A stretch of 64,000 bases of DNA from Mycobacteriales bacterium (GCA_046595815.1 JBKJSN010000088.1:10264-74263); one strand, 5' to 3'; shown: positions 1,597-58,441, numbered from the stretch's first letter. A program made the numbers and translations. The notes: generated from the sequence alone by a model not told the origin.

Positions 1597-1765
1597 GACG
1601 AACCCCTAAGACTTCTCATGTCGGACATTTCCGACCTTCTCATCGGCGCTTACGGTAGTAGTACTTGACCAACGGAGTCGCGATCCCTGCCTCGCGGTAT
1701 CGAGACATCAGCCACAACTCCCCCTCATCATGACCAAACGGACAGATTTTATGCGCACCGGGCCT

Positions 1766-1807
1766 AAAAAACAGAGGGCCCATCTCACGTGTGAGATGGG
1801 CCCTCTG
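1766..1807 (-). terminator. rho-independent terminator downstream of hppA
   Basis: Near-perfect hairpin CAGAGGGCCCATCTCAC-GT-GTGAGATGGGCCCTCTG (1772-1807), followed on the minus strand by a T6 run (A6 at 1766-1771 on plus). It lies 18 nt after the hppA stop. Confidence 0.85.
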
Positions 1808-1824
1808 AGGGAACGCGCGAGCCG

Positions 1825-7345: not shown

Positions 7346-8637
7346 TCCTCGGTGCTGTGGCTCAGGAAGATCCGCACGTGTGCGGCCGCCACGAGCAGGA
7401 TCAGCGCGACCGCCAGGCTCTTGGCGAGCTGGGCCGTGTCGATGCTGTTGGTGAGCGAGGCGACAGGCGAAGAGAGCACCTTGGTCGTGGTCTTCCCGGG
7501 CTGGTCGGCGTAGGGCAGCGTCGGCTGGTACACCTCCGACCCGGGGGCGGTCACGGGGAAGGTCGTGGCCGGCAGCGGGGGCAGCTTGGGGATGCCCAGG
7601 CTCGGGGAGAACCGGTTGAAGCTCAGCGCGAAGGCACGCCGTGACGCGGCGATCGGCGGCAGGGTCGGGATGGTGATGGGGCGCGTCACGGAACCGCTCG
7701 AGGTGCCCGTCGCGCCGGTGCTGGTGCCCGTAGCGCCGCCTGTGGTGCCGGTGGTGCCGCCGGCCGTCGTACCGCCGGTGCTCGAACCGGTCGTACCACC
7801 GCTGCCGGACCCGGTCGTGCCACCCGTCGTACCCCCGGTGGGCGTAGGCGTCGGGCTCGGCGGCGGCTGAGGAGTCACCAACTGCGCGCCGGCCGTGTTG
7901 GACCACTCGGAGGCCAGGTCGCTGCCGCCGGTCCCGCTCTTGCGGAGCGCCCGCACCGTGTAGCGGTAGTCGTAGGTCCCCGGCGTGGGGTTGTCGTAGT
8001 ACGCGGTGTATGAACGGTCCGACGGGCCGGCGTTGAACGTGCTGCCCTTGCCGTCGCTGATCTCGAACCCGGTGAGGTCGGTTTCTTGGCCGCTGTAACT
8101 CCACTGGACGTCCACACGGCTGGCTCCGGTGCTCTGGGCGCTGACCGAGCTGGGCGTCGTCGTCGGCCCGAAATTGGTGTAAAAGGCCACGGGCGAGGTG
8201 CAGTTGTTGGCAGCGTCGTCGCACGTCTTCGCGGTCCACTTGCCGTTCACGTAGGAGCGCAGCTTGTCCAGGGTGATGGTGAAGCTGGCGGTCTTCGAGC
8301 AGCTGCTGACCAGGTTCGAGGAGCAGCTCGTGATCGACGGCGTGGCGTTGTAGCCGCGCGCCGGGCTCCCGAAGTCGGCCGGTCCGTCGATGACGATCGA
8401 GCCGCCGCTGCTCGTGCCGTCGGTGTTGGTGATGGTGCCCTTGACCATGACGTCCTGGGTGGCCGTCCCGTTGTTGCTGACCCCCGAGAGCGAGACGGTG
8501 AGCGACTGCGCGGCGAGCGCGGGAGTCGCGGTGGCCCCGATAAGGGCACTCGACAGCGGGAAGGCGAGCGCGAGCACCGCGACGGCCGCACGGGGCCGAC
8601 GGTAGGCACGAGTAGTCACATCACGCTCCCTTCTCAC
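7342..8637 (-). CDS. secreted fibronectin-III-like, Gly/Thr-rich protein with C-terminal TM helix
   Basis: Signal peptide (AVAVLALAFPLSSALIGATATPALAA). Long GGTTG/PTPTP low-complexity linker. C-terminal helix LAVALILLVAAAHV. GTG start overlaps the sortase stop (GTGA). Confidence 0.7.
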   Translation of the reverse strand: MRRERDVTTRAYRRPRAAVAVLALAFPLSSALIGATATPALAAQSLTVSLSGVSNNGTATQDVMVKGTITNTDGTSSGGSIVIDGPADFGSPARGYNATPSITSCSSNLVSSCSKTASFTITLDKLRSYVNGKWTAKTCDDAANNCTSPVAFYTNFGPTTTPSSVSAQSTGASRVDVQWSYSGQETDLTGFEISDGKGSTFNAGPSDRSYTAYYDNPTPGTYDYRYTVRALRKSGTGGSDLASEWSNTAGAQLVTPQPPPSPTPTPTGGTTGGTTGSGSGGTTGSSTGGTTAGGTTGTTGGATGTSTGATGTSSGSVTRPITIPTLPPIAASRRAFALSFNRFSPSLGIPKLPPLPATTFPVTAPGSEVYQPTLPYADQPGKTTTKVLSSPVASLTNSIDTAQLAKSLAVALILLVAAAHVRIFLSHSTED

Positions 8638-45651: not shown

Positions 45652-47451
45652 CTAGGTCTCGTTGATGACACGGCCGCCGAGCTGGTCCTGCAGCAGCGCG
45701 ATGGCGGCGTCCTCGCCGTGCTGCACCGCGCGCTCCGGCTCGGGCGCCTCGGGGTCCACGGGCTCGATCTCGTCGCCGGGGGCGAACCCCTCATAAGCGG
45801 GTACGGCGGCAGCTGGCGCCTCGGGCAAGGTCGGGGACTCGGCACCCACGACCAGGGCCAGATCGACCTGGAGCCCGAGCACCTCGGCCAAGGCCTCCTT
45901 CAGGACGGCTTCGTTCGTGCCGGTCTGGAAGGTGCGGATCAGGCCGGCCGTCGAGAAGCCGAGGGTCAGGGTCCGGCCGGTGAGGCTGAGCACGGTGGCG
46001 TTGAGCAGCAGCGCCTTCGTGGCCCGCTTGCGGCTGTTCGCGGCGTCGAGCACCGCATCCCAGGACCGGCGCAACGCGGTGGCGTCCAGGCCCCCTGCGG
46101 CAGCCGGTTCGGCGGGCGTGCTCGCTGCGGGCTGGGGTTCCGCCGTACCGCCGAGGGTTGCGGCGGCCGGCCACGCGGCGGGGGCGGGAGCGGGCGCTGC
46201 TGGAGGCGCTGCTGCGGGGGTCGGTGCCGGCGTCGCGGCGGGCGGGGGTGCGACGGGAGCCGAGCGAGGCGCGGCCGCGGGGGCGTCACCGATGTCGAAG
46301 CGACGCTCCAACCGCTCGAGGCGGGTGAGCAGCGCGGCCTCGTCGGTCGAGGCGCCCGGAAGGAGGACGCGCGCGCACAGCAGCTCCAGTAGCAACCGGG
46401 GCGCGGTCGTGCCCTTGAGCTCGGTGAGGCCGTCGTGGAACAGGTCGGCGGCACGGGAGAGCCCAGCGGGCCCCATCGCCTGCGCCTGCCGGAGCATCGC
46501 GGGGAGCTGGTCCTCGGGGACGTCGAGGAGCTTTTTGTCCAGGGCCTCGGGTACGGCGGCCAGCACGACCAGGTCACGAAGCCGCTGCAGGACGTCCTCG
46601 ACGAAGCGACGCGGCGCCAACCCGCTCTCCAGCACCTGGTCGACGGTCGCGAAGACAGCCGCGCCGTCCTTGGCCGCGAAGGCCTCCACGACGTCGTCCA
46701 GCAGGGTGTCCGGGGTGACGCCGAGCAGCGACGCGGCGCCTTCACGGGTGACCCCGTCCGGACCGGCAGCCGCGAGAACCTGGTCCAGGATCGACAGGCC
46801 GTCACGGGCACTGCCGGCGGCGGCGCGCACGACGAGGGGCATGACGGTCGGGTCGACCGGCACGCCCTCCTTGGCGACGACCTCCTCCAGCAGGGCGGTG
46901 AGGTCGGCGCGCGGCATGAGCCGGAAGGGGTAGTGGTGGGTGCGCGAGCGGATGGTGCCGAGCACCTTCTCCGGCTCGGTGGTGGCGAACACGAAGCGCA
47001 GGAACTCCGGCGGCTCCTCGACGAGCTTGAGCAGCGCGTTGAACGCCGCCGTCGTCACCATATGAGCCTCGTCGATGATGTAGATCTTGTAGCGGCTCAA
47101 CACCGGGGCGTAGAAGGCCCGCTCACGCAGGTCTCGGGCGTCGTCGACGCCGTTGTTGGAGGCCGCATCGATCTCGATGACGTCGAGGGTTCCGCTGCCG
47201 TTCGGCGCCAGCCCGACGCAGCTGTCGCACTCGCCGCACGGGTCGGGGGTCGGACCCTGCTCGCAGTTGAGCGACCGCGCGAGGATGCGCGCGCTGGAGG
47301 TCTTGCCGCACCCGCGCGGACCGCTGAACAGGTAGGCGTGGTTCACCTTGCCGTTCAGCAGCGCCTGTCGGAGCGGACCGGTGACGTGCTCTTGGCCCTT
47401 GACCTCAGCCAAGGTCCCGGGACGGTACTTGCGGTACAGCGCCAACGACAC
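45652..47451 (-). CDS. dnaX: DNA polymerase III subunits gamma/tau
   Basis: GTG start 47451 (VSLALYRKYRPGTLAEV), Walker A GPRGCGKTS, zinc module CGECDSC, DEAH (IIDEAHM). The track start further upstream would run through the SRP RNA. Confidence 0.9.
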   Translation of the reverse strand: MSLALYRKYRPGTLAEVKGQEHVTGPLRQALLNGKVNHAYLFSGPRGCGKTSSARILARSLNCEQGPTPDPCGECDSCVGLAPNGSGTLDVIEIDAASNNGVDDARDLRERAFYAPVLSRYKIYIIDEAHMVTTAAFNALLKLVEEPPEFLRFVFATTEPEKVLGTIRSRTHHYPFRLMPRADLTALLEEVVAKEGVPVDPTVMPLVVRAAAGSARDGLSILDQVLAAAGPDGVTREGAASLLGVTPDTLLDDVVEAFAAKDGAAVFATVDQVLESGLAPRRFVEDVLQRLRDLVVLAAVPEALDKKLLDVPEDQLPAMLRQAQAMGPAGLSRAADLFHDGLTELKGTTAPRLLLELLCARVLLPGASTDEAALLTRLERLERRFDIGDAPAAAPRSAPVAPPPAATPAPTPAAAPPAAPAPAPAAWPAAATLGGTAEPQPAASTPAEPAAAGGLDATALRRSWDAVLDAANSRKRATKALLLNATVLSLTGRTLTLGFSTAGLIRTFQTGTNEAVLKEALAEVLGLQVDLALVVGAESPTLPEAPAAAVPAYEGFAPGDEIEPVDPEAPEPERAVQHGEDAAIALLQDQLGGRVINET

Positions 47452-47471
47452 CCGCAGGTCCTCCTTCAAGG

Positions 47472-47565
47472 AAAGGACCCCTCGCGCACCCGCCAAGAGC
47501 CCGCCTGCCCTTGCTGCCTTCCGGCCCTGGGGGGGTTCAGCGAGAAGAGCGCCGCACGAGGGGTC
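47472..47565 (-). ncRNA. ffs: signal recognition particle RNA (small bacterial type); ends approximate
   Basis: The minus strand contains the conserved domain IV core CCAGGGCCGGAAGGCAGCAAGGGCAGG, closed by the long helix GACCCCTCG...CGAGGGGTC. Canonical position between tRNA-Ser and dnaX. Confidence 0.75.
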
Positions 47566-47627
47566 TGCGCCCATCCTAGGGGTACGGCGGTCAGGTGCTG
47601 CTCGGGCGCTGCGCTAATCTCATCGAC

Positions 47628-47716
47628 GGAGGATTCGCCTAGTTGGCCTATGGCGCACGCTTGGAAAGCGTGTTGGGGGCAACCCCTCGCGAGTTCGAAT
47701 CTCGCATCCTCCGCCA
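47628..47716 (+). tRNA. tRNA-Ser (anticodon GGA), CCA encoded
   Basis: Acceptor GGAGGAT/ATCCTCC, anticodon stem CACGC/GCGTG with loop TTGGAAA, long variable arm (GGGG/CCCC), T arm GCGAG-TTCGAAT-CTCGC, then G plus CCA. Confidence 0.9.
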
Positions 47717-47756
47717 CGACTCTCCCGGGTCTTCGGATCCTGACGGGGTGCTGGGC

Positions 47757-48360
47757 TCATCGGACGACGATGGAGCCCAGCACTCGCCAGTTCGGTTTGC
47801 CGGCATAGAGCAGGGCACGGACTCGGTAGTTGCGGAAGTTGCGGAAGCCGAACCCGATCCGCTTGATGCGCTTGATCAGGTTGTTGAGCGCCTCGGTGGG
47901 GCCGTTGCCGACGCGGGCGATGTGGAAGTTGCAGATCTTGTCGAACCACTTCTCGAGTGTGCCGCCGAGTTTGCGGAGCTCGAAGGGCATGGTGGGTCGC
48001 TTGCAGTGCTCGATCAGCTCGCGGAGCATCGCTCGGGCGGGGTCGATGTCGGTGCAGCGGTAGAACTCGCGCAGCCGTTCTTTGACCCGGTAGGCGATCG
48101 CGACCTCACCGTTGGGGTCGCCCTGGGCCAGCAGTGAAGCCAGTCGTTGCTGGGCTGCTTCGGTGAGCCGTTCCTCACCGGTCAGCAATACGCGACGCAC
48201 CCGGAACAGTGGGTCGCGCGCGACGTCCGCGGTGGCCCTTGTCCTCGCGTTGCACCCGGCGCCGGACCTCATCCAGCGCCCGGTTGGCGAGCTGGATGCA
48301 AGGGAAGGCGTCAACGACCTGCTTGGCCTTGGGCAGCGCTGCGGGGCTCGCGCGCAGGTC
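47757..48360 (-). pseudogene. ISL3-family transposase remnant (5'-truncated, frameshifted)
   Basis: C-terminal ISL3-like sequence (RVRRVLLTGEERL ... NGPTEALNNLIKRIKRIGFGFRNFRNYRVR). A different frame upstream reads KQVVDAFPCIQLANRALDEVRRRVQRE..GHRGR. Frameshift near 48214-48222, in-frame TAG at about 48361. No N-terminal half. Confidence 0.8.
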
Positions 48361-48449
48361 CTAGGCGTCGCTATTCGGTCGGCGGCGTCGGCGTTCTCGA
48401 GTGTTGGGGAAGGGAACGTTTGGTGCGTGCAGAGCCGACGTTCTGGACA

Positions 48450-49238
48450 TCACCGACCGACCCGCTTCAGGGGCGGAACCTGAGCAGCGCCGAAGATGGC
48501 GGGCCGGGACACCTGCACCGCGACCACGAAGCACACCGCCCACAGCACGGCGACCGCAGCCCAGGTCCGCCCGATGCTGCCCGCCAGGTCCGGCTCAAAC
48601 CACGAAACGACTGCCAGCCAGACAGTCGCGGTCCCGACACACCAGGTCGGCACACGCCACCCCTGGGGGTGCCCCGCGGCCAGAGTTGCTCCCAGCAGCA
48701 ACGCGATGGGGAGCGCCGCCTGGATGGGCCAGTGGTCAAGGCCCCAGGTGTCATCTGCGACGAGATTGGTGCCGGTCGCTCGGGCTGAGTTCCACGAATA
48801 GGCGAAGGCCGGGGCGGCGGCCAGGACCACGAGCGCGGCCGGTAGCAGAGACGGCCGCCAGTACGACGGCCACGCTCGGAGCCCACCCCCCGTCGCCGCG
48901 AGAACGGCCGTGGTCACTGCGAGAGCGGCCGCGACGACGAGGTGCCCAGCCGACCCGCTCACTGCCGAAGCCGTCGCGACCGCCACGGCCACTGCGACCA
49001 CCAGGCCGAGCGCGGCTGGCGTGGCAGCCGCCGGCCTCACCACGAGTGCCAGCAGCGGCGCAGCCACCAGGAACAGAAAGAGCAGCCCCCAGCCGGTGGA
49101 CAGCAGCAGGGTCCGGTGGAAGTCCGGACCCTGCGCGAAAGCTAAGAGGTCGGTCAGGCCGAAGAAGAAAAATCCCCACAAGACGGCGAGGGCGGCGGCC
49201 AGAGTGCGGTGCAGGCGGGCCACAGACAGGCACCTCAT
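48450..49238 (-). CDS. integral membrane protein, function unknown
   Basis: 262 aa with about 8 hydrophobic helices. No motif recognised. Confidence 0.6.
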   Translation of the reverse strand: MRCLSVARLHRTLAAALAVLWGFFFFGLTDLLAFAQGPDFHRTLLLSTGWGLLFLFLVAAPLLALVVRPAAATPAALGLVVAVAVAVATASAVSGSAGHLVVAAALAVTTAVLAATGGGLRAWPSYWRPSLLPAALVVLAAAPAFAYSWNSARATGTNLVADDTWGLDHWPIQAALPIALLLGATLAAGHPQGWRVPTWCVGTATVWLAVVSWFEPDLAGSIGRTWAAVAVLWAVCFVVAVQVSRPAIFGAAQVPPLKRVGR

Positions 49239-49681
49239 TGCGGGGCGTTAGGACGTCGGTGACGGGCCCGGCGGCGCCCGCTTGTGAACTGAACTGCGGC
49301 CAGCGTCGTGACTAGAACGAGGTCCCCCGTGCTTCTGTGTGACCCAAGACGACGTCCAAAGCGGCGACCCCCAGGGGCCGCAAGATCACCGGCATCACTG
49401 GGTCATCCAGCGCGTTCAGTCGCGTCACCAGGGTCATGGGCGCCAGTATGTCCCATCCTGCGCGTACTCGCGGCGATCGTGACCGGCATCCCTGCCGTTC
49501 TCATCAGTCCAGGCGATCTTGCTCCCACGCACTTACCCGCCCCGATCCCAGCCCGCTGCCGTACGGGCCGTTGTTCGTCGCTGTGCCGGACCTGGGTGAA
49601 GGCGCTTCCTGCCGGCGAGCTACCCGCCTTCGTGGCGGATGTCATCAGTGCGGCCCGCCAGCGGGAAGCTCCCGGTGCCGG

Positions 49682-49732
49682 CGAAAGCGTCTTGGGGGCA
49701 ACCCCTCGCGAGTTCGAATCTCGCATCCTCCG
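49682..49732 (+). repeat. duplicate of the 3' half of tRNA-Ser(GGA) (att-type direct repeat; partner 47664-47714)
   Basis: GAAAGCGTcTTGGGGGCAACCCCTCGCGAGTTCGAATCTCGCATCCTCCGC is identical to 47664-47714 except for one base (50/51). It starts in the anticodon loop and ends in the acceptor stem. Confidence 0.9.
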
Positions 49733-49737
49733 CGCAA

Positions 49738-49775: not shown

Positions 49776-49834
49776 GTCGTGCGTCGTGTCATGGCTTGTA
49801 CGCCGTCCCGCTCGGGGCTGGCCGTGACATCGAA

Positions 49835-49870
49835 AACCCCTGAACCCGCTCAGCTGTGGGTTCAGGGGTT
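49835..49870 (-). terminator. hairpin terminator candidate (minus strand)
   Basis: 13-bp perfect arms AACCCCTGAACCC / GGGTTCAGGGGTT with a 10-nt loop. On the minus strand the stem runs into TTTTCG. It lies about 310 nt downstream of the 644-aa gene. Confidence 0.5.
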
Positions 49871-50181
49871 CTCGATCTCCGAAGAGATCACATTGGCGGG
49901 GTGGCGACGAAACTCCAAACCCGCAGGTCACAGTCATGGTCAACGAGATTCGCCCAAGGCGGTGCACGCGTTTTGCCCCGGACCTTGCACACTCCACAAA
50001 CCGACTCTCGAGGCGCGGAGCCTGAGTCGTACGGTGCGGTTCTGGGTGCGGTTCTGGGTGCGAGCGGGTGCCGTTGCCTGCCGGGTGAAGCCAGGGGCTG
50101 TCTTCGCAGCGAGCTGGTCGAAAGCGAGGTTGCGCTACTGGCAGATCCTGACCTGCTCAAAGCTTGGCGCCGCAGGTCTTC

Positions 50182-52116
50182 CTATCGGGTCTGACCGGTG
50201 CTCTCGGGCGCAGGCTGAGCTGCAGTCGGCTGCTGACGCAATCGGTGCGCCAGCAGGCTCTCCCGTCCTGCATCTGTGAGCCGGAAGGTCGAGGTGGGGC
50301 TCAGGGGGTTGTCGGTTGTACGGAGGATGAACCCCTTCTTCTCCGCCTCAGAAATCCAGCGGGTGCGGCTCTTGGTGGAGGCGAGGCTGAGCGCCTCAGC
50401 GATGCCCTTGGGTGAGAGCTCTCCGCCGCTACTGGCGTCGATGGCTGCGAGGAGCTCAGGCACCCGGCTCTCCCTGCTCCGGCCGTCCCTCACGGGCTTC
50501 TGCTGCTCATGCGCTGGCGCCTCGATAGCGCCAGCTCCCCGATCAGCTCCCCCGGTGCCCGCGGGCTCGTTGCTCAGCCTCCACGACGAGCTGTGCTTGC
50601 TACTTAGACGGTGAAGAATGCCGGCATCTTCGAGTGCCCGCAGTTCCGCTGCGGCGTCCACAAGCGCGCACGGTGCCAGGCTTCGGGCGGCCAAGTGCGT
50701 CCCGAAGGAAACGCCTGCCAGACCTGACTCGTTCACCTCCTCGCGCAACTGCATCAGACGGAGCAGAACGCTGACTAGGCGCAATCGGGCCGGGGAGCCC
50801 TCGACCTTCTTCTTCTCGAGCACCTGCCGGGCTGGCTCAAGGTCCAGCGTTCCCCTCAGCATGATGACCTGGAATGCGTTGGGCTTGTCTACGAACAGGA
50901 TTGGCATGCAGCCTGCAACGTGACACGCCTCGTCGGCGGCGGCAATGCCTGAGGTTTGATGCTCAACGATGCGAGCCCCGCTTGGGGAACGCAGCTCCTC
51001 AGCGATCCGCACCAGGCTGACGTTGCGTACGCCGGACATGTGGGTCATCCCAAGCTTCTCCAGGTCTGCATCCACGTGCAGTCCCCCTGGGCTGGTCACC
51101 ACAACCGAGGAGTCTGCTACCTCCACGAGCACGCTCGTGTCTCGTTGCGAAGGGGCGAACCCCCGGTGCACGAGGGCGTTGGACAAGACTTCTCGGAGTG
51201 TCTCGCGGGGAATGTCGAGCTCATCGAAGAGCTGCCCGCGCCGAACGACCTGCATGATGCCAAGTTCTTGATTCAGCGCCTCGAGTGTTTTGTCGAGCAG
51301 CTCCCCGGCGGTGCCGTCGATGTTGTGCGAAGCGAAGCGGGTGTCAGGAGGATCCGTGGCCTTGGGGTGCCTGCGGTAGCCGATGCGGCCGCTGTCGCTC
51401 CGGGTGTGGGGGTTCTCGCCTAGCGTCACTAGTCCGGCGTAGGTGAGCGTGCCGTCATCTCGCAGAACCCCCCACTGACGAAGCAAGTGCTCGTTGCCGT
51501 GCTCGGCCGACTTGGGGTTGGCGTTCCGTAGCGCCTGACAGAAGGCGTCGGCGGCAACGGTGTTCAGCGTGCTTCCCTCAGGGGCAGCCGCCCGGCTGAG
51601 GTCCTCACGCTTGCGGTTTGCCAACATTCCCGCGACCTCGGAAGGTGTCAGTCGCTGGTCGCCATCGCCCACTCGGATGAACGACCCCTTCTCGGGCCCA
51701 TCGCCCGCTCGGTGGCAGGGACGCTCATCTCTGGGTACCGCAGGAATGTCTGCGATCAGGACGGTGCCGTCGGGGTGGCTGACCAAGCTGATGGTGGCCC
51801 TCAGCGGTGGCTGCATCGATGCGCAGACTGCCTGAAACTCCGAGAGCATCTTTTGGGGGTTGTCCACGCCCGTCACGTCGAACGTGCCCGAGTTCTCGAA
51901 CACACCCAGCAAGAAGATGCCGCCCTCGCCGTTTGCAAAGGCACTGAGGGTTTCGTGGGTGGTCTCTGGAAGCGCTCGTTGCGCCCGCTTGGCTTCGATG
52001 AACTGATGGTCCGTTTTGACATCCCGAAGCTCGGCCAAAAGAGCATCCAAGGCATCGACATCCATCGGTGAGGCAGCTCCTGTCACGCGCAGCACGGTCC
52101 GCTCAGGAGTCCTCAA
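50182..52116 (-). CDS. AlbA_2 (Schlafen-like) plus HATPase_c_4 plus C-terminal winged-helix protein (putative DNA-binding ATPase/regulator)
   Basis: AlbA_2 signature (FIEAKRA ... LSAFANGEGGIFLLGV). HATPase_c_4 signature (REVLSNALVHRGF ... VVVTSPGGL). C-terminal wHTH-like segment (LSPKGIAEALSLASTKSRTRWISEAEKKGFILR). Track start 52116 is TTG; ATG 52065 (MDVDALDALL) is an alternative. Confidence 0.8.
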   Translation of the reverse strand: MRTPERTVLRVTGAASPMDVDALDALLAELRDVKTDHQFIEAKRAQRALPETTHETLSAFANGEGGIFLLGVFENSGTFDVTGVDNPQKMLSEFQAVCASMQPPLRATISLVSHPDGTVLIADIPAVPRDERPCHRAGDGPEKGSFIRVGDGDQRLTPSEVAGMLANRKREDLSRAAAPEGSTLNTVAADAFCQALRNANPKSAEHGNEHLLRQWGVLRDDGTLTYAGLVTLGENPHTRSDSGRIGYRRHPKATDPPDTRFASHNIDGTAGELLDKTLEALNQELGIMQVVRRGQLFDELDIPRETLREVLSNALVHRGFAPSQRDTSVLVEVADSSVVVTSPGGLHVDADLEKLGMTHMSGVRNVSLVRIAEELRSPSGARIVEHQTSGIAAADEACHVAGCMPILFVDKPNAFQVIMLRGTLDLEPARQVLEKKKVEGSPARLRLVSVLLRLMQLREEVNESGLAGVSFGTHLAARSLAPCALVDAAAELRALEDAGILHRLSSKHSSSWRLSNEPAGTGGADRGAGAIEAPAHEQQKPVRDGRSRESRVPELLAAIDASSGGELSPKGIAEALSLASTKSRTRWISEAEKKGFILRTTDNPLSPTSTFRLTDAGRESLLAHRLRQQPTAAQPAPESTGQTR

Positions 52117-52122
52117 CGCTCG

Positions 52123-52310
52123 AACCCTTTACCCAAACCTTACACCCAACTCCTGACTTCCCGCCCACTTGGGTAAAGGGTTCCCTGGCGCTCGGCCTGC
52201 GATACACGCTCAGAACTACCCCATGTGAGCAAGTTGGGTAAAGGGTTTCGGGCAAGTTGGGTAAAGGGTTGGTGCCTTGGGTAAAGGGTTGGTGCCTTGG
52301 GTAAAGGGTC
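52123..52310. repeat. iteron array: 14-bp motif TTGGGTAAAGGGTT, five direct copies plus one or two inverted copies
   Basis: Direct copies at 52169-52182, 52234-52247, 52257-52270, 52277-52290 and 52297-52310 (last base C). Inverted copy AACCCTTTACCCAA at 52123-52136. Degenerate inverted copy (11/14) at 52136-52149. The last three form 20-bp tandem units TTGGGTAAAGGGTTGGTGCC. Confidence 0.9.
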
Positions 52311-52514
52311 TCTGACGAGGGGGTGTGCCAGGTAACTGTTCAAGTAGAAGCGCTACCGACCCCGGACGTCCACTTCTGCCGGTGCCTGAGAGGGCCTGGT
52401 GGCGGCGCTACCGCGTTGCAGCCAGCAGTCAGGTTCTCATGAGCACGCCTAACAAGCCGGAAAGATGGGTCCAACCGCGCGCATTGTCGTGCTTGCTCGC
52501 AGGAGCGGCGTACG

Positions 52515-52748
52515 GTGCACACAATGGACCCTCTTGACGGTTTGCCGTCCGAGTCGCGCGCCGAGGTAGTGGCCGCTGTACAAGCCGCTTGGGACGTGAG
52601 CCCGGCCGCGGCTGAGGAGATTCTCCGCGCCGCTGAGCCGCTGTGGAACGTGCTCGAGGAACACGGCGGAGTGGATACCTGGGGCGGTATGGAGTTCGTC
52701 AATGTCTTCCCGCAGGCACTTGTACTCATCCGCAAAGCGTGCAACTGA
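52515..52748 (+). CDS. small acidic hypothetical protein (77 aa)
   Basis: GTG start 9 nt after AGGAG. About 70% G/C at third codon positions, within a locally lower-GC region. No motif recognised. Confidence 0.55.
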   Translation: MHTMDPLDGLPSESRAEVVAAVQAAWDVSPAAAEEILRAAEPLWNVLEEHGGVDTWGGMEFVNVFPQALVLIRKACN

Positions 52749-52833
52749 CGTACGTTCCAACGAGGCGCAGCCGATCCAAGCAGGTGCACCAGTTAGACCC
52801 ATCCCATCCGTCTTGTTAGCCGTACTCAGGTTC

Positions 52834-54375
52834 TCACAAGCGACGCAGAAGCCTCAGCCACCTGGGCCGTACCGGGCTTACGTCGTCCGGCAGGGGCTCG
52901 GGACTCGGTTCTGGCGCGAGTTCGAGGCCCGCATGGAAGGCGAGCTCCCGCCGCTCGTTCCGGCTGAGCCCACTCGTAGCAAGCCGCGCGGTCATCCGGT
53001 TGCGCAGCGCGGGAGCTGGCTGCCCCCAGGTCGTCGCGGCGCCTGCATGGAGCCAGTTGCGTAGTGCCGCCCGACCGAGGCCCGACAGCTGCGCATCGTC
53101 ATCAGCGGCGGCGCGCAGGTCGGCGTCAACCCGGTCCCAACTTCCAGCAGAGCGGCTGAGCCGCCACCCCGCCCTCCGGCTCCACGGTTGCTCGGACGCC
53201 CACGCCGGTTCAGCATCCGTGCCCGATGCCCCCGCCCGGGCGAGGCCGCGAGCTGCGGCAGAGCAGACTCGGCTACTGGGATCGAGCAGCAGCGGCCGGA
53301 GCTGTTCCCGGACACGGGCAGGTGTGCCGAGGACGGCGACAGCGGCGACAGCGTTGGCGCGCACCGCCGGGCTCGCGTGCGGCAAGTAGGTGCCAGCGAG
53401 GTCGGCGTCGTCCTGGCCGGCGCCGACGACCGAGAGTCCGTCGAGCGCTGCGGCGACTCGCCGGGTGCCGCGTGCACCCTCGACGAGCCAGCCGCGGTAC
53501 ATCGACGCAGGGTTCACATCTCGTCGCCGAGTCCGCCACTGCGCCGTTTCGCGGACCCGAGCGGATGGGTCGTCGAGAAGACTCAGCAGCGTCGTGGTGT
53601 CCAGGGCGCCGTCGTCGAGGCATGTGAGGGCAAGAAGCCGTCCGTCGACGAAGCGTGAGCCAAGTAGCTCGAGCAACTGTGCGGGTGTTGCGGTCGCCTT
53701 CAACCACTGAGCGGCAAGGGCTCGCACGAACTGGTCCCTCTCGCCGCGGACCGCAGCCATGAGCTCGTCGGTACTGAGCAGGCCCCGGTCGTGTGCAGCC
53801 TCGAAAGCCCATCTGCGAACGCGCCGGTCGGCGCTTGCTTGCAACGTCGGGAGCAGGCTCTGCTCGTCATGGACGGCGAAGAGCGCATCGAGGTAGCTGG
53901 CGAGTGCCTGTGGGGCGTGCTGCCGCTGCCGCCCGGCCAGCAGCACGCCGAGTGCGGACGAGGCAGCCTCGGGCGCGGTCTGCAATCGCAGCCCAAGCAG
54001 CGCGTCTTCGCGTACTTGCGGGACGTGGTCAAGGCAGCGCAAAGCTAGGGCCGCTGCTCGCAGCACGCCGGGGCTGCCGGCGAGGACCTTGGTGGCGCGC
54101 TGCCGAATGCGTCCGTCCGCGTGCAGGCTCGTTACCGCGGCCACGAACCCGGTCTTCTCCGCGAGGTTCGACCCGAGCCAGCCTCTCGTGCCGCTGACGG
54201 GCGCACCGCCGCTCATGTATCCGTAACTGCGGGCGTGGTCGTCGAGCTGGAGCCAGTCCCTGCCGCCTAGGACGCGAAGCCATGTTGCGCCTTCGATGCA
54301 GGCGGTCGTGTCGTTACCTGTGACGGCGTCCGCGAACGCCTGTAACGCCTCGCGGGCCTGCGACGGTGTGAGCAC
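52834..54375 (-). CDS. HEAT/ARM-like repeat protein, function unknown
   Basis: 513 aa. Recurrent HEAT-type signatures (DGRIRQRATKVL, DRRVRRWAFEAA, DPSARVRETA, HASPAVRANAVAA, DPSSRVCSAAARGL). GTG start abutting a palindrome. Confidence 0.65.
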   Translation of the reverse strand: MLTPSQAREALQAFADAVTGNDTTACIEGATWLRVLGGRDWLQLDDHARSYGYMSGGAPVSGTRGWLGSNLAEKTGFVAAVTSLHADGRIRQRATKVLAGSPGVLRAAALALRCLDHVPQVREDALLGLRLQTAPEAASSALGVLLAGRQRQHAPQALASYLDALFAVHDEQSLLPTLQASADRRVRRWAFEAAHDRGLLSTDELMAAVRGERDQFVRALAAQWLKATATPAQLLELLGSRFVDGRLLALTCLDDGALDTTTLLSLLDDPSARVRETAQWRTRRRDVNPASMYRGWLVEGARGTRRVAAALDGLSVVGAGQDDADLAGTYLPHASPAVRANAVAAVAVLGTPARVREQLRPLLLDPSSRVCSAAARGLARAGASGTDAEPAWASEQPWSRRAGWRLSRSAGSWDRVDADLRAAADDDAQLSGLGRAALRNWLHAGAATTWGQPAPALRNRMTARLATSGLSRNERRELAFHAGLELAPEPSPEPLPDDVSPVRPRWLRLLRRL

Positions 54376-54408
54376 GTCCTAGATCGTGACGTAGTTCGGT
54401 CTAGGACG
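54375..54408. promoter_or_regulatory. 9-bp inverted repeat with 16-nt spacer at the HEAT-gene start (candidate operator)
   Basis: CGTCCTAGA (54375-54383) and TCTAGGACG (54400-54408), in the divergent region between the HEAT gene and the recombinase-like gene. Confidence 0.45.
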
Positions 54409-54547
54409 CGCGGAGGTTACTGGGCGAACGCAAGAACTTGAGCTCCGCTAGGTCGTGCGTGTTCCTTTCGCTTCCGGCCGTTCTCACAAACCTGGCTAAC
54501 CGTCGCCGATGTGAGGGAGTCCCTGGCCGCGACGCAGGACGCAGCGG

Positions 54548-56401
54548 TTGCAACCGCGGATCGAGACCGGACCTGTGTTCGTTGTGACCACAGAGGGTTC
54601 GACGGAGACGACGGTGCAGCGGCTTGCCCGCTACACCCCGTATCTGCTGACCGCGGCGCAGTGGGCGCTCGCACAGGCTCCGGTGACGAACGCCGTCCTC
54701 GCTGCTGCTCCTGCCGATGCTGCTGACGCGATGGGGTTGGCCTCTCGGCTGTGCCGGCTACTTGTCGAACACCCTGGCTGGGACGGCCTGAGCGTTCCGG
54801 ACCTGGCCTTGTTGGTGACCGACCCGGGGATCAGCGCGCACATAGCGCGACTGGCGGCTTCCGGGACTTCCAGCCAGGGTCAGGGCAAGCATCTGTGCGA
54901 TCTTCGCCGGCTCAAGCACGCTCTCGCCGGGACCGTTGCCCCTGTGCGGGCACCCGTTCGCAAGCCAGTGGCTCCGTCGGCCGCCACCCGGCCACTGATG
55001 TCCTGGCTGGCAGCGGGCGAGCCGCTGCTCACGGCGGTGGCCGCGTATGAGAAGTCAACCGGCCGCAGCCTGAGCAAGAAGGTGATGAACCGGGCTGCTG
55101 AGGGAGCGCCGGCGTCGAGTGCGGCGGCGCCAGATCCGGGCACCGTGCTCTCGCTGAGCTCCGTCGGGGCTCCTGCGTGGGAAGTGGTGAGTCCACGAAC
55201 ATGGGCACGGTCATCCTCTGAGAGCACCTCCGGACCACTCAGGTCCGCCGCCCGGGCAGCGAGCGCGACGTCGAGCGCGACCTCGCGCACCTCGGGACCT
55301 GCTACTTCGGTGAAGCCGTCACGAGCTGCGGCGCTGCGTGCGGCGAAGGCAGCTGCCAGCGCGCGTTCAGCCCCGACTGTGACTGCCCTGCCCGACGTGA
55401 GCCTGCTGCCTGCAAAGGTGCAAGAAGCGATCGCCGAGTACCGCCCAGCAGCTCTCAGCGCCGAGCGCTGGGAGATCCTTGGGCCCCTGTGCCGCCGCCT
55501 CATCGCCAGCTACGCACCAGTCACTGCCGGGGTTGCCCGTTCGAGCGCGACCTCTATTGCCGCGTTCGTCGCGTGGATCCAGACGCGGCCGGGGCGGGCC
55601 GACGTTGGTGGCTCCGTTGCGGTTGAGGAGCTTCAGACCGCGGGCCTTCTCGATGTGTACCTGACGGAGTTGGCTGCTAGCGGGACGCCAGATCCGTCGC
55701 TGGCGACGTACCGGTCTGTGCTTCGGCGAACACTGAAGGCGCTGGACCCCAGCCCTCCCGCGGCGATCGCCTACCAGCCGATCGCTGGGCCGTACAGCGC
55801 CGCAGAGTGCGCCGCGTACGTGCGGCTGGCCCGCAACCAGCCCACCTCCCCTCGCCGTCGGGAACTCTCGACGATCGTCGGGCTCGGTCTCGGTGCCGGG
55901 CTGGACGGCAAAGACCTCCGCGCGGTGTGCCCGACCGATTTCAGTGACGCGACGCTCCCTGACGGAACGCTCGTGCTCCTTGTGCAGGTCCGCGGCGGCC
56001 GCCCCCGGACGGTGCCCGTCCGCGCGCTTTACGCCGATCTGGTCCGGGAAGCGCTGGCCCTGCACGCCAGCGATCGTCGGGGTTCCAACACGCCGCTGTT
56101 GGGCGTGAAGCCGACGCGGAAGAGCATCACGAGCCCAGCTATCCGCGACGCCGTCACCGCTACCGATGACAGCGTTGACATCGCGGTGAACCGGCTCCGC
56201 GCGACGTGGCTGGTGGCGTGTCTGGCCGCAGGCATCCCCCTCGGGCCGCTGCTGCACGCTGCTGGGCTGCGCTCAGCCAGGACCCTTACGGACCTGCTCG
56301 CGTACTGCCCCGCGCCGAACCCAGGCGACGTCAACCGACTCCTCGCGACCCTTCCCGCCGGTCCTTCTGGAACGCCTCCTGCGCCGGCAGGTGCGACATG
56401 A
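54548..56401 (+). CDS. tyrosine-recombinase-like protein with long N-terminal extension; catalytic residues appear partly substituted
   Basis: The C-terminal half has a core-binding-like segment (SIAAFVAWIQ ... ATYRSVLRRTLKAL) and an integrase-fold-like segment (GLGAGLDGKDLRAV, RGGRPRTVPV, NRLRATWLVACLAAGIPL, AGLRSARTLTDLLAY). TTG start is uncertain. The middle is low-complexity Ser/Ala/Arg. Confidence 0.55.
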   Translation: MQPRIETGPVFVVTTEGSTETTVQRLARYTPYLLTAAQWALAQAPVTNAVLAAAPADAADAMGLASRLCRLLVEHPGWDGLSVPDLALLVTDPGISAHIARLAASGTSSQGQGKHLCDLRRLKHALAGTVAPVRAPVRKPVAPSAATRPLMSWLAAGEPLLTAVAAYEKSTGRSLSKKVMNRAAEGAPASSAAAPDPGTVLSLSSVGAPAWEVVSPRTWARSSSESTSGPLRSAARAASATSSATSRTSGPATSVKPSRAAALRAAKAAASARSAPTVTALPDVSLLPAKVQEAIAEYRPAALSAERWEILGPLCRRLIASYAPVTAGVARSSATSIAAFVAWIQTRPGRADVGGSVAVEELQTAGLLDVYLTELAASGTPDPSLATYRSVLRRTLKALDPSPPAAIAYQPIAGPYSAAECAAYVRLARNQPTSPRRRELSTIVGLGLGAGLDGKDLRAVCPTDFSDATLPDGTLVLLVQVRGGRPRTVPVRALYADLVREALALHASDRRGSNTPLLGVKPTRKSITSPAIRDAVTATDDSVDIAVNRLRATWLVACLAAGIPLGPLLHAAGLRSARTLTDLLAYCPAPNPGDVNRLLATLPAGPSGTPPAPAGAT

Positions 56402-58104
56402 TTCCTCGGACCGAGCTCGACCGTGCGGTCGCGCTCGTGCGGCGCTCCGGCGTGCATAAGGACCTCGAAGCAAGGCTGCGTCCAGACGGCGCGGGCGGGC
56501 GGCCCCGGCAACTGCCCGTTGACGTGTTTCTCGCCGGCGTGATCTTGGCCGCGGGCAGCCGCAAGAACCTGGCCTTGACGAACGTGCATGCGCTCCTGAC
56601 CGGCGACATCGCCCGGTCGGCCCAGATCCAGTACGGGATCCGTTGGACGGACAAGGCCGGCGCCAGCCGCTGCCTGACGCTCCGGCAGGTCCGGTACTTG
56701 CTGGAAGCTCTCGAAGGAAAACTTGCCGCGACCCCAGGGCGGGCACCTGACCTGGACGACGTTGAGCGCGCCGAGCGCACCGACGCGCTCCAGTCCGTGC
56801 TGGACAAGCTCCTCGCCGCGACCATGCCGGTCCACCTACCGCCCGCAGACCGCTTCGCGCTCGACGCGACCTCGATGGAGTCCTGGGGCAAAGGCAAGCG
56901 CCGCACGGCCGTCGCGGTGCCCCAGGTGGAGCCGGAGGGCACTGGCGCGCACCCGCCGGCGGGGGTCGCTGAAGGTGACCTGCTGGCCATTGCACTCGAG
57001 GCTGGTGCCTCGTTCGACCCTGATGCTGACTGGGGCTACCGGACCCGCACGTACGACAACAAGACCAAGATGTGCTTTGGGTACGACGTGTTCGCGATCA
57101 CTGCGATGCCCAAGCCTGGTGGCACCGGAGTGCTCGACCGGCCGGTTCTGACCGAACGGCTCGTGGTCGCGCCGGCGAGTGCCGATGTCGTCGCTCCCGC
57201 GCTCGGGATGTTCGACCGGCTCACCGACGACGGCCGGACGGTCGTGGAGGTCGCCGCCGACCGCGCCTGGTCCTACAAGCTTCCCGATCGGTGGGCGGAT
57301 GAGCTTCGCGCACGGGAGATAGAAGCCGTGCTGGACCTGCACCCTAACGATCAGGGCGTCCGGGACTTCGAGGGAATCCGGATGGTCGCCGGGACGCCGC
57401 ACTGCCCTTCGATGCCCGATGAGCTGATCAACATCGTCCGGCCCGCGAACCTCTCCGCTGGCCGCGACCGGCCCCGTGCCAGTGCTGTACAGAAGGCCGA
57501 GCGAGCAAAGCGCAACTCGGAGCTCGAGGAGTTCGCGGCCAAGATCGCCGAGCGTGAAGCGTGGGCTTTCCGCCGGGTCGCCGGACCCGACGAGACCGGC
57601 AAGGAGCGCTGGGAGTGCCCCGCGCAGGCCGGCAAGCGCAGCTGCGGCAACTGCCCGTTCAGCAAGGACTTTCCGGTCGGCACCCCGACGGTCGAGAACC
57701 CGCCTGAGCTCACGACCGCGCCCAAGTGCTGCACCCAACGGACCGTGACGATCCCCGGGTCGGTCACGCCCAAGATCCGTCAGCGCCTGTACTGGGGCAG
57801 CCCCGAGTGGATCGCGTCGTTCAACCGACGGACCTACATCGAGGGCGTGTTCGGCAACATGAAGTCCCCCAAGACCGAGAACGTCCGCCGCGGCTGGACG
57901 TTCGTCGTCGGGATCGTCAAGACCAGCCTCATGGTCGGGTGTGTTGCTGCTGCCGCGAACCTTCGCACGCTCCGGGCATGGGCGGCACGAACCGGAGACC
58001 ACAGGGACCCCCTCACCGTCATCGACCCCGTCAGCGCCGGGTTCGAGGAGCTCGAACCCGACTGCGGCGCCACCGGTATCCACGGGCCACCGCTCGCCGC
58101 CTGA
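56398..58104 (+). CDS. DDE transposase-like protein (IS4/IS5-superfamily type, YREK-like signature) with Cys-rich insertion
   Basis: ATG 56398 overlaps the upstream stop (ATGA). DUF772/InsH-N-like N-terminus (GRPRQLPVDVFLAGVILAAGS). Candidate D (FALDATSMESW), D (EVAADRAWSY), E in F-x2-R-x3-E-x6-K (FNRRTYIEGVFGNMK). Cys cluster WECPAQAGKRSCGNCPFS. Confidence 0.65.
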   Translation: MIPRTELDRAVALVRRSGVHKDLEARLRPDGAGGRPRQLPVDVFLAGVILAAGSRKNLALTNVHALLTGDIARSAQIQYGIRWTDKAGASRCLTLRQVRYLLEALEGKLAATPGRAPDLDDVERAERTDALQSVLDKLLAATMPVHLPPADRFALDATSMESWGKGKRRTAVAVPQVEPEGTGAHPPAGVAEGDLLAIALEAGASFDPDADWGYRTRTYDNKTKMCFGYDVFAITAMPKPGGTGVLDRPVLTERLVVAPASADVVAPALGMFDRLTDDGRTVVEVAADRAWSYKLPDRWADELRAREIEAVLDLHPNDQGVRDFEGIRMVAGTPHCPSMPDELINIVRPANLSAGRDRPRASAVQKAERAKRNSELEEFAAKIAEREAWAFRRVAGPDETGKERWECPAQAGKRSCGNCPFSKDFPVGTPTVENPPELTTAPKCCTQRTVTIPGSVTPKIRQRLYWGSPEWIASFNRRTYIEGVFGNMKSPKTENVRRGWTFVVGIVKTSLMVGCVAAAANLRTLRAWAARTGDHRDPLTVIDPVSAGFEELEPDCGATGIHGPPLAA

Positions 58105-58351
58105 CGTTCGTACAGCGAAACACCAGCTCCACCCCGTACCCGCTCGGCCCCTGGCCGGACGGGCTACAGCCATGCCCGCAGTACGCCTCGCGTGGGAGCG
58201 ATGAGCAGCTACGGCCGGTCGCCGTGCCCGGAGAGCTCCCCGGAAGCGACGCGACGACGCTCCGAAACGGCAACTCCCCGTGTTCTCGCCACCTGGGCAA
58301 GATCACGGGGAGTTTCGTAAGTCGGAACCCCTGAGTTTCGTCAGGACCCCT

Positions 58352-58441
58352 TGGCGGTGGCGGTGGGATTTGAACCCACGGAGGAGTTGCCCCCTCACAC
58401 GCTTTCGAGGCGTGCTCCTTCGGCCGCTCGGACACGCCACC
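58352..58441 (-). tRNA. tRNA-Ser (anticodon CGA), CCA encoded
   Basis: The minus strand reads GGTGGCGTGTCCGAGCGGCCGAAGGAGCACGCCTCGAAAGCGTGTGAGGGGGCAACTCCTCCGTGGGTTCAAATCCCACCGCCACCGCCA. Anticodon loop CTCGAAA, long variable arm, T loop TTCAAAT. Confidence 0.9.

Follow-up and report, generated by a model that had tools for sequence, protein, structure and literature searches.

A probable DDE transposon family at the 3' ends of tRNA and tmRNA genes with a degenerate tyrosine-recombinase-like partner protein

In a 64-kb stretch of DNA from a Mycobacteriales bacterium (GCA_046595815.1, JBKJSN010000088.1:10264-74263; the whole stretch is called the window below, and positions are counted from its first base), a pair of overlapping genes at 54548–58104 encodes a degenerate tyrosine-recombinase-like protein (open reading frame 1, ORF1) and a DDE transposase-like protein (ORF2). 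Analysis of the window and of related loci revealed that this pair is the mobility module of a transposon that occupies 49898–58350 (8,453 bp) and abuts the 3' end of a transfer RNA (tRNA) gene. On balance, we consider it probable that the transposon is an intact copy of a DDE transposon family homing to the 3' ends of tRNA and transfer-messenger RNA (tmRNA) genes, in which ORF2 would perform the insertion and ORF1 would serve as a sequence-specific partner, likeliest as the target selector. We infer the functional roles and the chemistry from sequence.

The element is bounded by 18-bp imperfect terminal inverted repeats (GGGGTnnnGACGAAACTC), the general form of which is GGGGT-N3-GACGAAAC. The pattern GGGGTNNNGACGAAACTC occurs twice in the 64 kb, against 0.01 occurrences expected by chance, and the two occurrences are mutually inverted: the left repeat, GGGGTGGCGACGAAACTC, lies at 49898–49915 on the plus strand and was located by motif search, and the right repeat, GGGGTCCTGACGAAACTC, lies at 58333–58350 on the minus strand. 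Both are flanked by the pentanucleotide TTGGC, at 49893–49897 on the left and at 58351–58355 on the right. The inverted ends at 49898 and 58350, together with these TTGGC flanks, therefore define an element of 8,453 bp rather than one of 3.6 kb. An earlier sequence-only reading of the window had reported no clear inverted repeats, which holds within 54548–58104; the repeats do exist, with the left one 4.6 kb further left, and the ends had escaped notice because the span then reported does not reach the left one. The same reading had suggested a novel two-gene mobile element. The element is indeed mobile and non-standard, but it is not a two-gene element, since the 8,453 bp hold two cargo genes as well.

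To locate an unoccupied target, the empty-site sequence was predicted from these boundaries and then sought in a metagenome collection, in which one contig (L042) gave an exact match. This contig carries tRNA-Ser(cga), one single TTGGC, and then the left-flank sequence of the window unbroken, with the segment adjoining the insertion point (window 49870–49892) directly 3' of the tRNA and with tadA syntenic on the other side. Because L042 carries the predicted uninterrupted site, the boundaries are settled, and the transposon boundaries, the target duplication, and the empty site are demonstrated, as are, from the results described below, the precision of the site, re-insertion in tandem, the conserved gene pairing, the fold of ORF1, and its pattern of catalytic residues. 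In the window, the terminator hairpin of tRNA-Ser(cga) has been displaced to the left flank, outside the element, where UUUUCGAU follows it on the tRNA strand (49815–49892, minus strand; −44.8 kcal/mol, z −6.0). The search for further copies that the sequence-only reading had recommended yielded four more loci with both ends and a 5-bp duplication: L002 (CTGGC), L007 (TGAGC), L010 (GCAGC), and L031 (GCAGC). The elements at these four loci are 5.75–7.7 kb long, and their left ends are homologous over more than 100 nt and have two TGCACRC boxes in common.

The tRNA-Ser(cga) gene at 58352–58441 (minus strand; ARAGORN) had been noted as lying next to the pair. It does adjoin the pair, yet it is not a mere neighbor: it is the insertion target, which is left intact with its acceptor stem paired 7/7 and its 3' end facing ORF2. 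The five duplicated nucleotides are the discriminator base and the next four nucleotides, so that the right TTGGC copy in the window comprises A76, C75, C74, and the discriminator G73, preceded by one nucleotide from beyond the tRNA. The relatives were collected by scanning one genome per species, which gave 33 loci. A tRNA or tmRNA gene is present in the same arrangement at every locus with enough downstream sequence; at the remaining loci the contig breaks inside the tRNA, a tRNA 3' fragment comes next, or another element copy follows. An architecture like that of the right inverted repeat touches the tRNA 3' end in 24 loci, in which the target genes, on the strand opposite to the pair, are tRNA-Ser (cga, gga, and gct), tRNA-Leu, tRNA-Arg, and tmRNA. 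When the six target gene types are taken together, the CGAAA repeat core lies 14 nt from the last acceptor-stem base in 19 of 24 loci and 15 nt from it in the other five (in this count L031 was corrected by eye and L041 was excluded). The arrangement of an ORF1-like gene, an ORF2 homologue, and an opposite-strand tRNA-Ser about 250 bp further on was also found in Cellulomonas sp. CW35 and on a 274-kb metagenome contig.

The 5-bp repeats vary by site (GCCAA, GCTCA, GCTGC, ACAAC, ACTAT, and ACTTG). Tandem arrays, in which a right end is followed by 5 bp and then by the left end of the next copy, are present in L010 (~166–202), L011 (~6560–6620), and L018 (~7915–7960), and in L027 (~3737–3900) the right end touches just 18 nt from the 3' part of a tRNA-Ser, a hint that insertion may need no more than a very short target. 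The tandem arrays and the L027 fragment imply that the target site is not destroyed by insertion and that the recognized sequence is on the tRNA side. The classical sign of an att site, a direct copy of the tRNA-Ser(cga) 3' part, was sought across the window, and nothing beyond chance was found except the 5-bp TTGGC. Taken together, it is very likely that the element is a DDE-type transposon with these boundaries and with tRNA-end specificity. The sequence-only reading had also raised the alternative of a domesticated pair, that is, an immobile host module that stands beside the tRNA by chance. Distant relatives (on Streptomyces plasmids, L037, and L038) that lack a tRNA or recognizable ends would suit such a module, but for the window copy and its subfamily it is contradicted by the inverted repeats, the 5-bp target duplication, the empty site in a relative, the tandem arrays, the several tRNA targets, and the turnover of cargo. 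Domestication is thereby excluded for the window copy, and we regard this explanation as hardly credible.

ORF2 (56398–58104, plus strand; 568 aa [amino acids] from ATG) is predicted to be a DDE transposase of the IS4/IS5/IS1182 (YREK) supergroup and a distant relative of IS1182, with a YREK-type signature and a Cys/His-rich insertion domain. The candidate DDE residues, the F-x2-R-x3-E-x6-K signature, and the Cys-rich insertion recognized in the sequence-only reading are all conserved in an alignment of 31 relatives. In this alignment, D156, R289, R478, and E482 do not vary, at least 90% of the sequences share D288 and K489, and the signature F/Y-x2-R-x3-E-x6-K corresponds to F475/R478/E482/K489, with F or Y at position 475. 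A conserved His/Cys cluster (H335, C336, C407, C416, and C445) separates the second D from the E. Profile searches matched residues 440–527 to the NCBIfam IS1182 family (NF033551, E 1.3e-6) and the last ~90 residues to Pfam DDE_Tnp_1_6, and among the 31 family members DDE_Tnp_1_6 was matched by 25 and DDE_Tnp_1 by three. In contrast, the DUF772-like N-terminus that had been proposed was not recovered, as no Pfam match to DUF772 was obtained for ORF2 at E≤1 or for the 31 relatives at E≤0.01. The AlphaFold2 (AF2) model of ORF2 (predicted local distance difference test [pLDDT] 84, predicted template modeling score [pTM] 0.81) places D156 in a strand (152–161), D288 just past a strand (284–287), and E482 in a helix (469–489), with the acidic triad on either side of the insertion domain, and the large N-terminal region is modeled as helical. 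Homologues of ORF2 fall into more than 110 clusters, almost all of which are unnamed.

ORF1 (54548–56401, plus strand) is a protein of 617 aa when read from a TTG start; in the NCBI annotation, the gene of the identical protein (P0001) begins 22 aa downstream of this TTG. It consists of a first core-binding-like domain (residues ~18–135), a disordered linker, a second core-binding-like domain (~283–405), and a degenerate catalytic domain (~406–600). No Pfam (E≤1) or NCBIfam match was found for ORF1, and the gathering score of Phage_integrase (PF00589) was not reached. The AF2 model has a mean pLDDT of 72, with 80–90 in the folded parts, and a Foldseek search of this model against the PDB returned Cre, XerA, XerH, and Tn1549 Int (E 7e-6 to 1e-3, ~350 aligned columns), with the match covering the C-terminal ~330 aa. 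A profile of the catalytic-like domain matches Pyrococcus XerA (4a8e) with E 9.8e-5; this restricted profile was the only one to reach XerA, since full-length ORF1 and ORF2 profiles gave nothing useful against the PDB, and hhalign of the ORF1 family against an approximate Escherichia coli XerD sequence was not significant (probability 0.3%) and served only to check the residue mapping for consistency. These results bear out the integrase-like C-terminal half described in the sequence-only reading. That reading had also described an N-terminal region of about 290 aa of unknown function with a Ser/Ala/Arg-rich linker. The linker is present and is predicted to be disordered (pLDDT <50 at residues 203–262), whereas the region is no longer without an assignment, because its N-terminal ~120 residues repeat the core-binding-like domain (hhalign probability 99.1%, E 1.8e-18).

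Alignment to XerA indicated that most of the catalytic residues of ORF1 have been replaced. Arg-I (GAGLR) corresponds to D453 in GAGL-D and is lost; the Lys of GKDR is replaced by an Arg (R485 in RPR); in the HQLRH motif, which reads xRLRxTW in ORF1, His-II is lost (N548) and Arg-II is kept (R551); His/Trp-III (GH) is replaced by L574 in GL; and the position of the Tyr nucleophile, 9–10 residues past GL, is occupied by L583/L584. A tyrosine near this position, Y586, is unconserved and varies among Y, H, F, and L in 24 sequences. Substitution of the first catalytic Arg and of the His of HxLR, as suspected from the sequence, was thus confirmed, and no intact RKHRHY set is present; the catalytic substitutions occur in 24 of 24 aligned sequences. 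Four of the six catalytic residues are lost, the Tyr included, and from the loss of the Tyr, Arg-I, His-II, and His/Trp-III it therefore follows that ORF1 cannot recombine DNA.

A contrary explanation holds that ORF1 is still a recombinase that works through non-canonical chemistry and integrates a circular form of the element across the 5-bp overlap, with ORF2 as an accessory or a passenger. The right end–5 bp–left end junction does resemble a pair of inverted binding sites that flank a short spacer, the location at a tRNA 3' end is shared with classical islands, and a distant family member, P0123, keeps Arg-I, Arg-II, and the Tyr. However, Leu stands at the nucleophile position and Arg-I, His-II, and His/Trp-III are replaced throughout the aligned sequences; the sequence of the 5-bp repeat changes with the insertion site, a variation that is incompatible with strand exchange across an overlap; nothing on the tRNA side resembles the element repeats, and a long att repeat of the tRNA is absent; and the DDE/YREK residues of ORF2 are strictly conserved. 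An active ORF1 is accordingly very unlikely. Elements of the Tn4430/Tn5401 type combine a DDE transposase with a tyrosine recombinase and generate 5-bp duplications, and this known layout would accommodate ORF1 as a cointegrate resolvase of a replicative DDE transposon, like TnpI of Tn4430 (Tn3 family). Against such a role, the residues needed for resolution are missing in ORF1, ORF2 has only 568 aa and no Tn3-type Pfam or NCBIfam match, and no res-like site was identified, which makes a resolvase highly improbable.

A search with a hidden Markov model of the ORF1 family returned 2,713 cluster representatives (50% identity clusters) at E≤1e-3. P0123 scores above the Pfam Phage_integrase threshold (30.3 vs 27.1 bits) and retains GLR and a canonically spaced Tyr, from which we conclude that the ORF1 family descends from genuine recombinases; P0123 may be an evolutionary intermediate. 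Short forms of ORF1 (260–360 aa) without the extra domain stand beside ORF2 in Acidimicrobiia, in metagenomes, and on Streptomyces plasmids. Longer homologues of ~730–760 aa with N-terminal extensions were also observed (P0126, 758 aa; L012:3590–6001; L013:2704–4989; L021:3524–6001). Several other top hits are of similar length. The extension of P0126, the homologue that was scanned, joins the dead recombinase to a Dam-like N6-adenine DNA methyltransferase domain (PF05869, E 4e-21).

The two genes remain coupled across relatives. Their coordinates, the sizes of 617 and 568 aa, and the overlap between the ORF1 stop and the ORF2 start agree with the sequence-only reading. This 4-bp overlap, ATGA, was found again in most related loci, including the distant pairs L037 and L038, a Streptomyces plasmid, and L041, and it is retained down to 28% ORF2 identity. 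Each RefSeq/PGAP annotation of either protein that was checked (in Cellulomonas, Nocardioides, and Streptomyces plasmids) reads "hypothetical protein". In L038, P0123 is encoded together with a 550-aa ORF2-like protein (643–3083), and on two Streptomyces linear plasmids (L039, 3562–6290; L040, 3970–6752) the pair is accompanied by a divergently transcribed helix-turn-helix regulator upstream.

The two ends of the element carry further repeats inside the terminal ones. At the right end, the order inward from the tRNA 3' end is common to the loci: GGGGTCCT-GACGAAAC, then a second TGACGAAAC about 23 nt inward, and then a hairpin. In the window this hairpin (58261–58326, plus strand; −40 kcal/mol, z −4.7) is a probable terminator of ORF2 and contains the inverted third CGAAAC copy (58263–58268) as well as the second direct copy (58310–58318), which gives two direct copies of GACGAAAC and one inverted copy at this end. 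Pairing of the stem is maintained despite sequence changes in L001 and L002. A consensus scan for promoters and terminators gave nothing relevant, and the hairpins were judged by folding. The terminal ~85 nt of the right end are identical in L041, and the sequence upstream of these has diverged. The left subterminal region (49916–49992, plus strand) contains instead two TGCAC(G/A)C boxes, at 49963–49969 and 49986–49992, within blocks conserved in an alignment of five left ends; the tandem copies in L011, L018, and L027 likewise carry these boxes at their left ends. The end motif differs by clade, reading CCCACAAAG in L015 and TTAGCCGAAAA in L030, and co-varies with the divergence of the proteins. 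As a separate observation, an IS3-like orfA (RYPPELRERAVRMV...) lies in L030 (6651–8980) between the ORF2 homologue and the right end beside tmRNA, as an insertion within the transposon.

In the mechanism that we propose, ORF2 would cleave the transposon ends and join them to target DNA cut with a 5-bp stagger. Such a stagger would duplicate the discriminator, CCA, and one further nucleotide, and because the discriminator, CCA, and 1 nt are duplicated, the tRNA gene remains intact. ORF1 descends from a tyrosine recombinase; its DNA-binding fold still comprises both domains, and a second core-binding domain has been acquired. It may act as a sequence-specific DNA-binding partner, most likely as the target selector, which would bind the T-arm/acceptor part of the tRNA gene and hold ORF2 downstream at a constant distance; binding to the transposon ends through the subterminal repeats may be an additional or an alternative function of ORF1. 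Tyrosine integrases specific for tRNA genes recognize the 3' parts of these genes, of which the T-arm/acceptor part is the classic site. Target selection is favored for ORF1 because such integrases read tRNA 3' regions, because the arrays put recognition on the tRNA side, because the distance is fixed, and because TnsF of the transposon Tn6022 offers a precedent. TnsF is an inactivated tyrosine recombinase with tandem core-binding domains that has been identified as a target selector by experiment (Faure et al. 2023, PMC10293859). We put the chance that ORF1 is specifically the target selector at about even. Only tentatively, at slightly below that level, do we propose the full picture of a compact, two-protein, site-specific DDE transposition system in which a dead descendant of a tRNA integrase would read the tRNA/tmRNA gene and position an IS1182-like transposase 5 bp past the acceptor stem.

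The subterminal repeats can also be read in another way, with ORF1 as an architectural or regulatory subunit that binds the ends (the GACGAAAC/TGCACRC repeats, or two abutted ends) and with ORF2 alone recognizing the tRNA gene through its N-terminal or its Cys-rich domain. The presence of several subterminal repeats at both ends, the asymmetry of the two ends, the co-variation of the end motif with protein divergence in L015 and L030, and the resemblance of abutted ends 5 bp apart to a recombinase core site are all consistent with end binding by ORF1, and the helical N-terminal region and the Zn-like insertion of ORF2 could bind DNA. Two points speak against it, namely that tyrosine integrases are established readers of the 3' parts of tRNA genes and that TnsF, the only characterized dead tyrosine recombinase in a transposon, is a target selector. 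We regard this arrangement as rather unlikely, although the end-binding and target-selecting roles of ORF1 are not mutually exclusive.

Several observations weigh against a DDE transposon family in which ORF2 inserts and ORF1 selects tRNA/tmRNA ends. The DDE assignment of ORF2 rests on sequence profiles and conserved residues: its DDE_Tnp_1_6 match scores 22.6 bits, below the 25.1 cut-off, its NF033551 match scores 27.6 bits against a cut-off of 270, and a Foldseek search of ORF2 against the PDB lists Mos1, prototype foamy virus (PFV) integrase, the P element, and Mu first, none of them significant (best E 0.19). A run of G at the tips of the repeats leaves the length of the duplication uncertain by 1–2 nt in some loci. 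Inverted binding sites separated by a 5-bp direct repeat would also be compatible with the core site of a tyrosine recombinase, and the role of ORF1 could alternatively lie in end binding, transpososome assembly, or regulation. Finally, the distant pairs L037 and L038 and the Streptomyces plasmids L039 and L040 are without a nearby tRNA or recognizable ends. Because these distant clades show neither, tRNA homing is demonstrated for the subfamily of this element alone.

The cargo lies on the left side of the element and is variable, and the coupled orf1-orf2 operon lies on the right. The window copy carries two cargo genes on the minus strand. One (50182–52116) encodes a 644-aa protein with Schlafen AlbA_2 and HATPase_c_4 domains (Pfam E 1.4e-11 and 2.1e-10) and a C-terminal region resembling a winged helix-turn-helix, and the other (52834–54375) encodes a 513-aa HEAT-repeat protein (Pfam HEAT_2, E 8e-8). 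PADLOC returned weak matches for the 644-aa protein and none for the HEAT protein, and it identified no defence system for the cargo or the pair. Between the two genes there are four tandem 20-nt repeats (TTGGGTAAAGGGTT...; 52234–52316; repeat families D1, I16, and I17), with an inverted copy at 52114–52136; just upstream of the Schlafen/AlbA_2 gene, they could form an operator or an iteron-like array. The G+C content drops across the cargo region, to 0.62–0.66 at the Schlafen/AlbA_2 gene, compared with 0.70 in the flanks. Elsewhere, the cargo includes a DUF6281 protein in L002 and a DUF433 protein in L007, and other copies carry proteins without a family match; a Pfam search of the cargo ORFs of other copies gave almost nothing. 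L041 has 86% ORF2 identity, yet the DNA upstream of its ORF1 is different. A perfect palindrome with 8-bp arms (GTCCTAGA...TCTAGGAC, 54367–54398) is located where the HEAT-repeat gene begins, between this gene and the divergently oriented ORF1, and is unconserved elsewhere; a left end at this palindrome, directly upstream of ORF1, was rejected because the upstream regions are unconserved between loci.

Left of the element, two 51-nt direct copies of the tRNA-Ser(gga) 3' part (47664–47714 and 49683–49733; 98% identity) bracket a remnant of ~2 kb (47717–49682), in which the only recognizable gene is a C-terminal fragment of an ISL3 transposase (47757–48314, minus strand). These repeats have the appearance of degraded att sites from a classical island that had integrated at the tRNA, and the remnant directly adjoins the new transposon. 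Further left, the longest dnaX ORF (45652–47574, minus strand, with ATG at 47574) overlaps the Rfam signal recognition particle RNA gene at 47470–47568 (minus strand), and the true dnaX start is probably located further downstream.

These findings point to a widespread family of mobile elements that current annotation has missed and that moves cargo into tRNA-adjacent hot spots in Actinomycetota; if true, they define a large unannotated transposon family in this phylum. They suggest that DDE transposition can place elements at tRNA 3' ends in the way that integrases do, and island finders that look for an integrase together with a long tRNA repeat would miss such elements. Should ORF1 prove to be the selector, it would be the second disarmed recombinase, after TnsF, to be reused for DNA targeting, presumably independently, and the first outside the Tn7 machinery. 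The system would then be far smaller than Tn7, with two proteins of ~1,185 aa in total and ends of ~100 bp, and thus attractive for mechanistic study and possibly as a tool for safe-harbour insertion.

Comparison with known systems places the element apart from each of them. With the IS1182 family it shares the C-terminal ~90 aa that contain R-x3-E-x6-K and match NF033551 and DDE_Tnp_1_6, together with short inverted repeats and a short target duplication. Unlike that family, it reaches 27.6 bits against the family cut-off of 270, lacks the DUF772 N-terminal domain, and has a second obligatory gene, 2–4.6 kb of cargo, strict targeting of tRNA ends, and a length of 5.75–8.45 kb; insertion sequences are typically ~1.3–2 kb long. 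Like the classical islands and prophages at tRNA/tmRNA genes, it occupies a tRNA 3' end without inactivating the gene, keeps a mobility gene beside the tRNA, forms tandem arrays, and carries variable cargo. The classical islands recombine inside the tRNA gene and leave direct repeats of tens of bp, such as the 51-nt tRNA-Ser(gga) repeat in the window, whereas here a dead recombinase-like protein, a 5-bp repeat, and inverted-repeat ends are found. Homing at a fixed distance from a conserved gene as a "safe harbour" is also known from Tn7 (TnsD at attTn7) and from tRNA-homing CRISPR-associated transposons (CASTs), which use a dedicated selector; those systems are multi-subunit (TnsABC with TnsD/TniQ or Cas) and belong to another transposase family, while two proteins are present here. 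Members of the Tn3 family with TnpI differ in having a transposase of ~1000 aa and 38-bp inverted repeats, against 568 aa and 18 bp in the new element.

The nearest likeness is to Tn6022 with TnsF and to the Tsy elements (PMC10293859). In both cases a DDE-type transposon has recruited an inactivated protein of the tyrosine-recombinase fold with tandem core-binding domains, insertion is site-specific with target duplication, and more canonical recombinase relatives survive (the Tsy TnsF there, and P0123-like proteins with GLR and Tyr here). ORF1 and TnsF are likened by architecture, a sequence relationship not being claimed. ORF1 differs in having a full-length dead catalytic domain and no N-terminal zinc fingers. 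The element further differs from Tn6022 in its target, which is the tRNA/tmRNA 3' end instead of comM, and in having a single 568-aa transposase of the IS4/IS5/IS1182 type in place of TnsA, TnsB, TnsC, and TniQ; no Pfam or NCBIfam match to these four was obtained in its four large ORFs, and 49898–58350 contains no other long ORF with coding-like base composition. A search of the full-text literature, with ISfinder outside its scope, found no account of an element at tRNA genes that combines a DDE transposase with a dead tyrosine recombinase, and left TnsF as the sole precedent. The element belongs to none of the Tn7-like, Tn6022, CAST, or classical island families and is a previously undescribed DDE transposon with a dedicated accessory protein.

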